Made by a program: the position numbers and the translations under genes. Positions 28,406 through 64,000 of a stretch of 64,000 nucleotides of DNA are shown one piece after another. Positions within the stretch are counted from its first letter, which is position 1, and each line of letters opens with the position of its first letter. The notes under the pieces are model-generated. The model was not told where the DNA came from. It did not search any database and saw only the letters and a list, made by a program, of their open reading frames with translations. This stretch comes from Eledone cirrhosa (Eukaryota), in the NCBI GenBank assembly GCA_964016885.1, contig OZ024741.1, positions 175,026,001 through 175,090,000 on the forward strand, read 5' to 3'.

Positions 28406-29920
28406 GCGACAGGCTTTCATGCACACACTCACGTACACACACACACACACGCGCGCGCGCGCGCACACACACACACACACACACACACACACACACACAG
28501 ACAGACACACACACACACACACACACACACACACATACACACACACACACACACACACACACACACACACACACACACACACACACACACACACACACAC
28601 ACACAACAGACAGACAGACACACACACACATAAATGTATACCTACATATAATATGTTATCTCCGTAACTATATATGTTTACACTCTTTACAAATTATCCC
28701 CTGTAATTGTTTGATATGTTTACTTTATATATAAATACTCGGATTTATTACTTGGAATCTTTGAGCTTATTCCACAGGTGATATGCCGCATGCTTCTGAT
28801 ATTCTTAGACATGGCATCTTTAATCTAATTTTGGTAGTACCTTCATATATATACATTTGTAATATAGAAACTACGTAATACAATGACTGAAAAAGTCGAG
28901 ATTGGCTAAAATATAAATAATTAGAATCGTTAGCGTCGAACGAGATGCCTTGCGGTATTTGTTCTGATACTTTGTGTTTTGATGTGAAATCCTACCTTGA
29001 CCTATTTCTATCGTAGACTTGAACATATGTTTGGTTTAATACCATCACTTGGCTCCTGGGGGGGCCTTCAATGAAGTCTACTCTGTGTTGCAAGTATTCG
29101 TAGCATGTCCTCGGTTTGAGAATACCTTCTTCCCTTCCACAATTTTCGGAGGAGGGTCATGGGAACAGCTCTACCTATTCCTACGAAATAGTAAAAAAAA
29201 AAAAGAAAAAATCACTGGTGCATTTAGCTATGTTGTCAAGTGTTTAAGTTGTCCGGATAAGTTGTGGTTTTCAGGTAAAGAAAGAGACAATTTAACATGC
29301 ATTCTTCAAATCCAACCTGTAAGTGGAACAATAAAAATATACAAAAGATTTTTCTTTCTACAATTTAGCATATGGTTCTACGTTGTGGTTAATATCTAAA
29401 TTTCAATGGTGGAGTTTTTCTTTGTCAGAAACCATCCCCTTTATGGGAATAATGCCAAGAAAAAAAAAAAAAGATAATACATATACGTATGTAACGCACA
29501 CACATGCACACACACACACACACACACACACACACACACACACACACACACACACACACACATACACACACACACACACACACACACACACACACACACA
29601 CACACACACACACACACACACACACACACATATATATATATATGCAGACACACACATAACACATATATATAAACACGTTTGTGTATATACACATACATAC
29701 TTGCATGCATACGTACATGTATGTATGTATGCATGCATGTATGCACGCATGTATGTATGTTGAAAAGTGTATAATAACGTTATAATAACGTTATATCTGT
29801 ATAAATACAGAGTGTGTAACCGAGACTACACCAGCGTGTATAAACATATACAGATATCTATGAGGGAGGTATGTACACATAAGAAAGTACGAATTTCCCT
29901 GTAAATTGAAAAAATGATAA

Positions 29921-29970
29921 ACACTTTTAATCGATTTTCGGATCTAATTGGACCCTCATCAGAAGGTGTG
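29921..29970 (-). ncRNA. Minimal type I hammerhead ribozyme motif
   Basis: Minus strand reads cacctt CUGAUGA GGGUC caauua GAUCC GAAA AUCGAU UA aaagug. Confidence 0.75.
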
Positions 29971-29981
29971 TATAATAACGT

Positions 29982-30440
29982 GACACACACACACACACAC
30001 ACACACACACACACACACACACACACACACACACACACACACACACACACACACACACACACACACACACACGCGCACACACAGACGCACACACACACAC
30101 ACACACACACAAACACACACAGACACACACACACAGACACACAGACACACACACACACACACACACACACACAAACACACACAGACACACACAGACACAC
30201 AGACACACACACAGACACACACACACACACACACACACACACACACACACACACACACACACACGCACACACAGACGCACACACACACACACACACACAC
30301 ACACACACAAACACACAGACACACACAGACACACACACACAGACACACAGACACACACACAGACACACACAGAGACACACACACACAGACACACACAGAT
30401 ACACACACACACACACACAGGCACAGACACAGACACACAC
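29982..30440. repeat. Long degenerate (CA)n/(CAGA) microsatellite (similar tracts at 28420-28630 and 29495-29760)
   Basis: Directly visible. Confidence 0.95.
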
Positions 30441-30727
30441 ATAAACACGCTCGCGCGCGTTTATATGCATGCGTACATCGCCACATGCATGCACACAGAG
30501 GTAAATCTCTAGGTATATATGTACGCAGATATACAATGACAAATGCATTTGTAATAACAACGACAATAATAATAAATAAATAAATAAACAAATAGATAAA
30601 TGAACACAAACACACACAGACACCCGGATGTGGTGCATGCGCAAACTGAGCACACAACACACACACAGAAACAAAATGGCGTAGGACAGAAGAAAGGAAA
30701 GGCACAGAAACAAAGAAAGGAATCCCC

Positions 30728-62000: not shown

Positions 62001-62502
62001 CTCACTATAAGGGCTGGAGACATGATGTGATGGGCAGGGTGATCCACTGGCACCTATGCAAGGTAAACAATTTACCACATTCTGAGAAGTGGTATGAGCA
62101 TAAGCCAGAGGCGGTGATAGAAAACGATCAGGTGAAGGTGCTATGGGATTTTAGGATACAGACGGACAAGAAACTGGAACACAATAGACCTGACCTGGTG
62201 GTTGTGGACAAAGAAAAAAGATCGTGCCTGATTGTGGATGTGGCCTGCCCATTCGACACGAGAGTGCAAGAGAAGGAGAGGGAGAAAATTAACCGATACC
62301 AGGATTTAAAGTAGGAGGTAAAAAGGATTTGGAACTGCCATGAAGTCAAAGTGATCCCGATTGTCATAGGCGCACTAGTGACTATCTCAAAAAGTTTCCA
62401 GGGATGGTTAAAGAAAATTGGCCCCTTCACGCTTTTTGGAACGCTTCAAAAGGCATGCTTGTTGGGAACAGCAAGAACCCTCCGATACGTCCTGAATATT
62501 TG
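59079..62502 (+). pseudogene. Near full-length R4/Dong-like RLE LINE ORF (RT + CCHC + PD-D/ExK nuclease) with two stops and one frameshift; (AAT)n tail to about 62650
   Basis: Motifs WTKELNRTVMQCY, PWWKKRL, NWKSPGPDG, YRPITCL, GIFQGDSLSP, FMDDLK, CRICGE..H..C, RHD, RPDLVV, DVACPFD. ORFs 59079..60254, 60258..61325 and 61322..62314. Confidence 0.92.
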
Positions 62503-63341
62503 AGGCTGCAGGTAGTGGCTTGATATTCATTTCAACAAACTTTCTAGTTAAATAACATCAATGACTGAGACTCAAAGAACAACAACAATAATAATAATAA
62601 TAATAATAATAATAATAATAATAATAATAATAATAATAATAATAATAATAAGGAACGAGGTATCACTATAATATCATTATGTTTATTTAGGTGTGATACG
62701 CAATTCCCGATCGACCTGCTCGAGGTACGATCGGTATCGATCGGACCCGACTCTGCTGGAATCGATAGGTCATCAGACTTATGAATTCCCTAATATGTAT
62801 GTATATATGCATATATATATATGTAATAAAAATTTGTGAAGTTTTTACTGTGATATACTTTGTCGCTATTAACTCTTCCCCTTTCTTTCTCTCCCTTTCA
62901 CTTTTACTCACCCTCTCTCTGCTAGCTACCCCGCTACTTCCGCTGTTTCTCTTTACTTTGCCTCTTGTTTTTCTACTCTCGCGGAAGTCAGACCTGTATT
63001 TTTTCGCTCCGTTTCACTGTCTACACAGCCTCGTTCTTAAGTCCAGTAGCTGATGTTGACAGCCTTTTCTTTCTCTTCCGCTGCTACTACACGTGCTTCT
63101 CGTGTTTCCCTCTTCGGTATGTTTTTCCGTTATTTTTTCCCTTCTGTTATATATTTTTCTCTCTCTCATCCCCCTCCCCCCATAACTTCCTTTAGTTATT
63201 GACGCACTGGAGCTAAACATCTTGTCTTTAATGCGTAGAAATGTCCGTGACCTCTAGAAGACAACTGATGAAAGGGAAATTACCCCCGTTCGTGCTCTCC
63301 TCTTATATATATATATATATATATATATATATATATATATA

Positions 63342-63879
63342 AATAAATTTAGTCCTTCATCAGTGATCTGCCAACCTTCATTGGCATTTCATCGCTTTAA
63401 AGACCATATACCTCCGGTTGGTGCGAGCAACGGCTAAAGAAAGTAGTTGGGACACGTAAATAAGGGGAACGAGCGAGACTGTAAACAATCAAAGATGGTA
63501 ATGCAACGAATCTCTCTCGTCTACGATTTCACAGAACTTATGTTCACCGATTTCAGGGACTTGACTCCTTCTTCCTACCGTTGGACCTGTGCGAAATTCT
63601 TTCCTTGTTCACATTTCGACCAGCTTTGATGGTCTTTATTCTCTCTCGTCCACGATTTCACAGAACTTATGTTCATCGATTTCAGGGACTTGACTCCTTC
63701 TTCCTCACTTTTCGTTGCATTACCATCTTTGATTGTTTACAGTCTCGCTCGTTCCCCTTATTTACGTGTCCCAACGACTTTCTTTAGCCGTTGCTCGCAC
63801 CGACCAGAGGTATATGGTCTTTAAAGCGATGAAATACCAATGAAGGTTGGCAGATCACTGATGAAGGACTAAATTTATT
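63342..63879. repeat. Fold-back cassette: 169-bp inverted arms (63342-63510 / 63711-63879) enclosing a 66-bp direct repeat
   Basis: The arms are reverse complements; the direct repeats are at 63511-63576 and 63640-63705. Each arm ends in CUGAUGAAGGAC (partial hammerhead core). Confidence 0.88.
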
Positions 63880-64000
63880 CATATGTAACCCATTTGCAAT
63901 CACGCAGCACGCCATGTTTTCATATATATATATATATATATATATATATATATATATATATATATATGTGTGTGTGTGTGTGTGTGTATACATGTATATG

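Follow-up and report, generated by a model that had tools for sequence, protein, structure and literature searches.

What are the short fold-back cassettes, many of them carrying motifs of the hammerhead ribozyme, that lie among simple repeats in the genome of Eledone cirrhosa, and how did they come to be there? The cassettes in question are found in a stretch of 64,000 nucleotides (nt) of contig OZ024741.1 (assembly GCA_964016885.1, positions 175,026,001 to 175,090,000), hereafter the window, within which all coordinates are counted. An earlier note on this DNA proposed that every cassette represents a family of tiny ribozyme-processed RNAs, mobilised in trans by the proteins of Penelope-like elements (PLEs), in a single common system. 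Here, we report a computational analysis of these cassettes (Table 1). Those with real or decayed type I hammerheads are probably insertion products of a Penelope-like protein that combines a reverse transcriptase (RT) with a GIY-YIG domain, deposited in (TA)n-type repeats, and they appear to be of two sorts: short 3' ends of Hydra-clade elements joined head to head (D and E, and probably C, F, and H) and retrozyme-like units (45320-45945, denoted I+G, and perhaps A).

Table 1. Cassettes of the window and the nearby Penelope-like remnant
Feature	Position	Strand	Description
A	29764..29981	-	Candidate 201-nt retrozyme-like monomer with a 14-nt exact terminal repeat
A hammerhead	core 29962-29956	-	Type I; G-C closed stem II; palindromic stem III AAUCGAUU; predicted cut after 29928
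B	30728..30772	+	Minimal type I hammerhead; extra nt after A9, 6-bp stem II, quasi-palindromic AGGACU; element limits uncertain, about 30668-30995
C	40500..40708	.	Head-to-head pair, arms 40503-40624 (87%); Hydra-type core
Cc	40762..40940	-	Single-arm cassette flanked by (TA)n; textbook minimal PLE hammerhead 40884-40849 with extra A, G-C closing pair, ACGU palindrome, and H17=U
D	44359..44646	.	Head-to-head Hydra-type 3' ends; hammerhead cores 44495+ and 44446-; arms 94% identical, beginning about 18 nt 5' of the core; tail hairpin 44586-44610 on + arm only
E	44664..44861	.	Inverted tail-less arm with hammerhead (core 44761-) joined to a 5'-truncated tailed arm; tail as in D, at 44805-44828
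F	44969..45150	.	Head-to-head pair (93%), Hydra-like ends; hammerhead without GAA in both arms; tail variant ACTC...GAGTGCT, + arm only
I+G	45320..45945	+	One young insertion in (TA)n; inverted arm 45320-45390 and ~1.2 copies of a 466-nt unit
H	46036..46240	.	Decayed head-to-head pair (78%), degenerate core; tail-like hairpin 46174-46203 on one side
PLE remnant	48180..49971	+	Decayed, frameshifted Hydra-clade open reading frame; RT and C-terminal GIY-YIG, CxCX5C linker; tblastn E 2e-56
J	63346..63921	.	169-nt inverted arms (98%) between (TA)n; each ends in an outward-reading half core CTGATGA; ~45-nt extension on one side only

Hammerhead cores and inverted arms

Ten full hammerhead motifs at 8 loci, and 2 partial ones, had been called in the earlier note. 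A descriptor in which an intramolecular stem III was obligatory had no matches in the window. When a palindromic stem III was accepted, six of the ten calls were recovered (29962-, 30733+, 40880-, 44446-, 44495+, and 45685+, the last with a G8A substitution), against 0.06-0.115 matches per dinucleotide-shuffled window and a maximum of 2 over 600 shuffles. A scored, relaxed scan added 44761-, bringing the recovered calls to seven, as well as 13973+, which was absent from the original list and is probably a chance match; at a score of 10 or more, 8 matches were observed against 0.05 expected (40 shuffles). The palindromic and the scored descriptor were both adjusted post hoc, with the sequence already known.

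The elements of a minimal type I hammerhead (CUGANGA, GAAA, NUH, and stems I and II), above chance expectation, are present in A, B, Cc, D (twice), E, and G, the hammerhead of I+G, whereas a complete core together with stem I is missing from C, F, H, and J. The calls that were not recovered are defective in different ways: 40557-/40570+ has the core and a 3-bp stem II and lacks stem I; 45039-/45054+ retains stem I and a palindromic stem III and lacks G12-A13-A14 in both arms; the core at 46053 is degenerate (CTGAACA); and 63363-/63858+ has only the CTGATGA half of the core. The sole hammerhead match in Rfam was HH9 at 45667-45738, with 35.7 bits, below the gathering score of 52, which no hammerhead in the window reached; most of the Rfam matches were to microRNAs, and these we regard as artefacts of palindromes and microsatellites.

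Inverted arms were verified at 40503-40624, 44359-44582, 44664-44801 (31 bp), 44971-45123, 45320-45548, 46036-46161, and 63342-63879. Simple repeats adjoin both ends of 8 of the 11 listed stretches, two of which, starting at 45320 and 45549, proved to be a single element with (TA)n at both outer ends. Between 29 and 50 kb, however, 34% of the non-repeat positions have a microsatellite no more than 150 nt away, so that the window, taken by itself, supports microsatellite targeting only weakly.

The motif-level claims of the earlier note survive in part. The excess over dinucleotide-shuffled sequence (6-8 matches against 0.05-0.12), the inverted arms, and the minimal type I hammerheads with (quasi-)palindromic stem III and inverted ends are all confirmed. 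Among the individual calls, seven of ten hold against ~0.1 per shuffled window, while those at 40565 and 45003 are broken and those at 46053 and 63342 partial; the proposed Rfam check returned the one subthreshold match and no other hammerhead. The simple-repeat flanks are real at most stretches, in a region that is repeat-rich anyway, and the ends at 30728 are uncertain. The cassettes had also been described as mostly dissimilar, which does not apply to D and E, related families that agree at 74% over 85 nt.

Could the fold-backs nevertheless be palindromes of AT-rich DNA, produced by replication slippage or resembling miniature inverted-repeat transposable elements, with the hammerheads incidental? 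Hammerhead-free palindromes do occur elsewhere in the window (41046-41617, 42279-42554, and 43654-43750), the descriptor was tuned after the fact, and nothing attains the Rfam gathering score. We consider this explanation very improbable, and largely refuted for A, B, Cc, D, E, and G, if not for H and J, given that the 6-8 matches far exceed the shuffled expectation, that an independently trained covariance model (R1, below) selects the same places, that compensatory changes and variation at N7 are seen among copies, and that the tails are one-sided.

B and Cc are, on the features of their sequences, minimal hammerheads of the common Penelope/Poseidon/Neptune type. They share with the minimal hammerheads of metazoan PLEs the extra nucleotide after A9, the G10.1-C11.1 pair, and the palindromic stem III, and differ from them in host lineage (PMC4209133). 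In the part of that study available to us, dual minimal hammerheads 100-700 bp apart on opposite strands are already known, and solo dispersed motifs are regarded as 'probably related to truncated PLEs'. J has a PLE-like geometry and is not a hammerhead; its assignment as a Naiad half-core end gained no support, its motifs not being found in the octopus Naiad consensi in a search of the supplement of PMC8557442.

Resemblance of D and E to Hydra-clade 3' ends

Hydra-clade elements form inverted truncated copies with one-sided tails and a (TA)n bias, their hammerheads, as given in the supplement, have a stem III of 4 bp that encloses a single base and a stem II whose base is weak, and several of the consensi end in a GCTC-hairpin-GAGCACT that resembles the tail of D and E (PMC8557442). 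The endonuclease-bearing Hydra-1_Obim, Hydra-2_Ajap, and Hydra-2_Amil resemble the cassettes in having a hammerhead near the 3' end with an unpaired or weak stem II base. Hydra-1_Obim and D both have ACCA-x-UGGU as stem III, and, compared by eye, the end of the Hydra-2_Ajap consensus, GCTCT...CATAGAGCACTC, is similar to the tail of D and E (PMC8557442).

We collected 96 Hydra-like loci from metagenomes and bins, namely, the best 77 of 555 confirmed stretches and 19 more. The hammerhead descriptor had 94 matches in 69 of these loci; 47 lie 81-287 nt behind an open reading frame (ORF) and 18 lie 226-497 nt before it. A GCTC-hairpin-GAGCACT tail follows 52-77 nt past the cut site in 61 of the 94 matches (51 distinct), and among the 33 without a tail, 20 reach (TA)n after 30-73 nt, several others being stopped by contig ends. 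Model R1 was built from 25 of the 51 distinct tailed ends, picked mainly for a 9-nt stem III; this subset was used because stem III was out of register in a 49-sequence alignment. The alignment covaries, with 91.5% of cells paired and a score of 0.574 versus 0.158 for shuffled and at most 0.129 for slid alignments, and on 25 loci outside the training set R1 gave 41 matches at 20-88 bits, tail-less ends scoring ~21-25. As a side observation, loci L078-L096 place Hydra-type PLEs and animal-style microsatellite clusters inside records titled as bacterial metagenome-assembled genomes or symbionts, likely host DNA in bins.

In the window, R1, which had been trained only on unrelated marine Hydra-clade loci, produced 16 matches up to E 5. 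The top six were D+ (44488-44613; 49.8 bits, E 4e-9), the E tail arm (26.6 bits), D- (26.1), E- (23.1), C+ (23.0), and F+ (20.0); G and A scored 16.8 and 15.8 bits, and a match at 19219+ was taken as chance. Counted by hand, the tail motif lies 59, 59, 58, and 58 nt past the cut site in D, E, F, and H, in one arm each, with the tails of F and H having A-U where the others have a G-C closing pair. An inverted 5'-truncated copy, a one-sided tail, and a simple-repeat target are found together in D, E, F, and H, of which H is the weakest Hydra-type member. C has a U.U after A9, a 3-bp stem II, no stem I, and a one-sided extension without a clear tail motif, and is probably a decayed Hydra-type end. 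By primary sequence and predicted fold, then, D and E match the 3' ends of Hydra-clade PLEs, and C, F, and H do so more weakly.

Copies of D and E were sought by comparing 44462-44861 (the D + arm and tail, and all of E) with four sequencing runs. Matches were found in 3,519 of 17,142,217 contigs of run X1, possibly from the source sample itself, and in 4,648 of 12,467,656 reads of X13, a restriction-site-associated DNA (RAD) run from another sample and another study that is biased by its AATT cuts; two runs from other organisms had 3 and 7 matching contigs. A loose-end consensus of 1,146 X13 reads defines a D subfamily with an alternative 5' strand of stem II, and 44525 C>T occurs in 1,348 of 1,770 X13 reads, at least 724 of which combine it with the alternative strand. 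Together, the changes convert two stem II G-C pairs to A-U and repair one mismatch. Core position N7 varies, at 44757 in 81 of 173 reads and as CUGAGGA in the D subfamily; among 40 of the 100 variant rows no further core base is affected, and one X1 loose-end consensus (agreement 0.65) has an altered core. In roughly half of the E copies, A9 is followed by C and G12 is preceded by A, an arrangement also present in both D arms, and joints connect D arms with the E tail. In 14 X1 contigs the tail end runs on into (CA)n(TA)n, and in one contig of X6, from another organism, the tail-less end runs into (TA)n; another observation from X6 is a contig (record 13) that shares the head-to-head junction of D. 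X13 read ends at 44552, 44555, 44799, and 44856 were rejected as biological ends because they coincide with the cuts of the RAD enzyme at AATT.

No blastn match was found between D or E and the 96 Hydra-like loci, and none of 93 candidate Hydra-clade relatives in viral_contigs was confirmed.

Probable truncated ends and retrozyme-like units

The form of the head-to-head cassettes recurs in families with a linked ORF. Positions 3520-3830 of locus L085 contain, in order, microsatellite, tail, arm, hammerhead, short spacer, hammerhead, arm, and microsatellite, which is the geometry of D, and the hammerhead is identical to those located 150 and 185 nt behind the ORFs of L086 and L093. Of the extra copies whose family includes an ORF-linked member, 17 are uncensored; 7 of these break off 9-14 nt 5' of the core, the others at distances of 54-1,642 nt. 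Three more are censored, the remaining extra copies have no linked counterpart, and some of the short distances come from comparing different loci. Given that the L085 form matches the L086 and L093 ends and that copies stop 9-14 nt before the core, ORF-linked families make short head-to-head cassettes. D, E, F, C, and H are most simply read as probable truncated ends of ORF-linked Hydra-clade families, no parent having been found for this host in the pattern scans or among the 96 loci.

A decayed PLE ORF does lie 2 kb away. It is interrupted by a short interspersed element (SINE) at ~48401-48619, ends at (AAT)n, and retains a DVTMGSYD-like RT motif, the CxCX5C linker, and the C-terminal GIY-YIG domain, motifs that characterise the Hydra clade (PMC8557442); ADxCDLIG and CSCRI motifs are, by eye, common to it and Hydra-1_Obim, in line with an octopod as the likely host. 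It is not established as the parent of D and E, because its own 3' end has no recognisable hammerhead or tail. Just upstream, at 48047-48138(-), a decayed GAAAC..AGUA hammerhead half stands in inverted orientation and ends at (TA)n; with 19.0 bits under R1 (E 0.05, a biased and weak match), it is a possible decayed inverted end. An ORF start directly behind the hammerhead, as in the Poseidon element PAc of Anolis, is ruled out for D and E because the ATG meets a stop two codons on.

I+G is organised differently. Its 71-nt inverted arm (70/71 identical) starts where the main copy stops, a two-end signature, and 45386-45478 recurs at 45868-45944, identical save for a 16-nt duplication, so that the terminal repeat is essentially an exact 77 nt. 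The period is 466 nt, the longest ATG-initiated ORF has 50 codons' worth of amino acids (50 aa), and the circular fold has a z-score of -9.5. The hammerhead (45678-45722) sits at the tip of a long stem I rod and bears the G8A change, which is expected to abolish cleavage. As a side observation, the Hydra-clade hammerheads of L023 and L072 have a U3-A8 core in place of C3-G8, which bears on whether A8 at 45685 is a family variant. A non-coding unit inserted at more than its own length implies that the template was circular or tandem, as in animal retrozymes (PMC7229834), and 45320-45945 is likely a retrozyme-like non-autonomous element copied from circular or tandem RNA. A weaker case can be made for A (period 201 nt, longest ATG-initiated ORF 29 aa, circular fold z -3.0), which may be a retrozyme-like unit as well. 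Its 14-nt repeat forms part of stem I, and because the repeat contributes to this stem, a target-site duplication is disfavoured.

Against the dimensions of retrozymes (150-450 nt, a type I hammerhead, more than unit length), I+G is slightly over in size, at 466 nt, and A fits less well overall. With animal non-LTR retrozymes, as far as their available descriptions go, I+G and A share a 150-470-nt non-coding unit with one type I hammerhead, low GC content, a strong circular fold, and insertion at more than unit length (PMC7229834; Li et al. 2026 bioRxiv). Unlike those elements, I+G and A comprise only 1.1-1.2 units with a single hammerhead and no tandem array, and I+G has a PLE-type inverted arm and the G8A change (PMC7229834). 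Tandem copies with two or more complete hammerheads were not seen in the window, I+G and A having one each.

Redundancy of unit length in I+G and A is also what would be expected if all cassettes, D and E included, were stand-alone non-autonomous families, that is, ~150-450-nt ribozyme-processed RNAs moved in trans by proteins of Hydra or other PLEs. D and E are very abundant, with sequencing depth collapsing 17-19 nt 5' of the core; their inversion point is shared by the X6 contig from another organism (record 13); and animal retrozymes have been proposed, in the accessible portion of bioRxiv 10.64898/2026.07.22.740005, to derive from the pseudo-long terminal repeats of PLEs. Yet ORF-linked families yield the same short head-to-head form (L085 versus L086 and L093), these families likewise have 5' ends concentrated 9-14 nt ahead of the core, D, E, F, C, and H have no unit-length terminal redundancy, and both the inversion junction in the window copy and the divergence of subfamilies confound the fall in D depth. 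We regard the stand-alone explanation as unlikely and retain the division into truncated Hydra-clade ends and retrozyme-like units.

With respect to origin, the earlier note was right in its Penelope link, which the covariance model places at the Hydra-clade 3' ends, and its (TA)n preference is supported. High copy number and stem covariation hold for D and E, the two cassettes examined in reads and contigs. A non-autonomous unit is seen at 45320-45945, perhaps also at 29764-29981, and is not the general case; in their anatomy, the fold-backs correspond to 3' ends truncated from autonomous Hydra-clade elements rather than to tiny ribozyme-processed RNAs, and two separate sorts of cassette replace the one common system.

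A proposed model of insertion and the neighbourhood of the cassettes

In the mechanism we envisage, an RT/GIY-YIG protein would nick both strands of an AT-rich repeat, and would prime two cDNAs inside the RNA, at one site just ahead of GCTC-hairpin-GAGCACT and at another behind it, such that the two start sites would give one tail-less and one tailed arm. Synthesis would often halt 4-20 nt beyond the hammerhead core, perhaps at the RNA 5' end or at structure, and joining of the two products 5' to 5' would create the head-to-head form. The RNA would be copied across the cleavage site and, therefore, would have to be uncut or religated. Repeated targeting of the same repeat tracts would account for the cluster.

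Much of this scheme follows PAc. In that element, nicking and extension occur on both strands of the target, the tail is delimited by a pair of internal RT start sites, and insertion in vitro persists when the hammerhead is mutated (PMC11167929). The likeness consists of two 3' ends one tail apart, linked to a stem-loop, and priming on both strands; the differences are that PAc belongs to another clade and that its hammerhead overlaps the ORF start, with an AC-rich loop (PMC11167929). In the Hydra-like loci, by contrast, the upstream hammerheads precede the ORF by 226-497 nt, and GCTC/GAGC pairing closes the hairpin. Hammerhead cleavage is likely dispensable for these insertions, judging from the dead cores: GAA is lost from both arms at 45039/45054, and G8A is present in a very young copy at 45685. 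More tentatively, and with some doubt on our part, GCTC-hairpin-GAGCACT, which keeps a fixed distance behind the hammerhead across Hydra elements of marine invertebrates, could be a recognition and initiation signal of the Hydra-clade RT that has been captured here by very high-copy, ORF-less, C.A-closed families. Dead hammerheads (GAA loss, and G8A in the young, circle-like 466-nt unit) would still be mobilised, and the ribozyme would be a structural stop or a passenger, not the step that processes the RNA.

A number of observations speak against the interpretation developed here. The bare loose tail pattern is not enriched in the window (4 matches versus 2.35 per shuffle), the GAGT tail variant of F and H occurs in none of the 51 independent tails, and the C.A pair that follows A9 in D and E occurs in none of 72 independent hammerheads. 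H is not matched by R1, and C and F are weak under it, with E-values, themselves rough, of 0.006 and 0.028. The depth of D, which falls to near zero ~18 nt 5' of the core, and its very high copy number are also compatible with a short element that stands alone. Exact D patterns had 0 matches in viral_contigs and 0 in metagenome_contigs, these pattern scans revealed no ORF-bearing parent of D or E, and the 3' end of the PLE remnant is featureless in the sense described above. Dead cores in both F arms or in G can also be explained by conversion between arms or by later mutation, and the mechanism is borrowed from a Poseidon-clade element, not one of the Hydra clade.

Every component of this picture has already been published, apart from the tail hairpin across the Hydra clade. 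A clade-wide hairpin is not described in the available text of PMC8557442, and no description of it was found in the literature, most subscription papers being outside the search.

Around the cassettes, the window is rich in microsatellites and contains ORFs of non-LTR (long terminal repeat) and LTR retroelements, along with several copies of a SINE-like repeat of ~190 bp, which we take to be octopus-type; two SINE halves form a tail-to-tail palindrome (91%) at 42279-42554. A 210-bp inverted pair (98.6%) lies between (TA)n at 41046-41731, with a one-sided extension that opens with GCTC-hairpin-TTGA(A/G)C like a Hydra tail, and has a diverged relative at 28649-28852; neither has a recognisable hammerhead. 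Long interspersed element (LINE) copies with an RT recognised by Pfam, at 59079-62651, 36316-39329(-), 56100-57523, and 50606-51524, are bounded by (CAC)n, (AAT)n, (TTC)n, or (TATG)n and presumably resemble the microsatellite-targeting Dong/R4 elements. Directly behind an (AAT)n LINE end, at 62690-62790(-), CTGATGA and GAA surround a 7/8-bp stem without stem I, possibly a decayed hammerhead. Other repeats are an LTR retrotransposon at 13031-18963 (LTRs ~740 bp, 97.9% identical; protease, RT, and RNase H domains), a 30-bp satellite of 107 copies at 25010-28232, a 54-bp array at 43359-43750 whose last unit folds back as a 97-bp palindrome, and a non-coding repeat of ~470 bp (84%) on opposite strands at 50073-50533 and 57577-58054, flanked by (AAT)n or (TTC)n.

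For Octopus vulgaris, 31 recently active families of Penelope-like elements are listed in PMC13282606. No cephalopod retrozyme was found reported in the literature, again with most subscription papers outside the search, and the 466-nt unit is a candidate retrozyme circular RNA in this lineage. The analysis would also account for clustered hairpin-like repeats that tools relying on structure mistake for microRNA precursors, and would assign them to a little-studied PLE clade. Finally, the tail hairpin and the two end positions may provide a handle on the start of reverse transcription in the Hydra clade, a step previously shown for one element of another clade.

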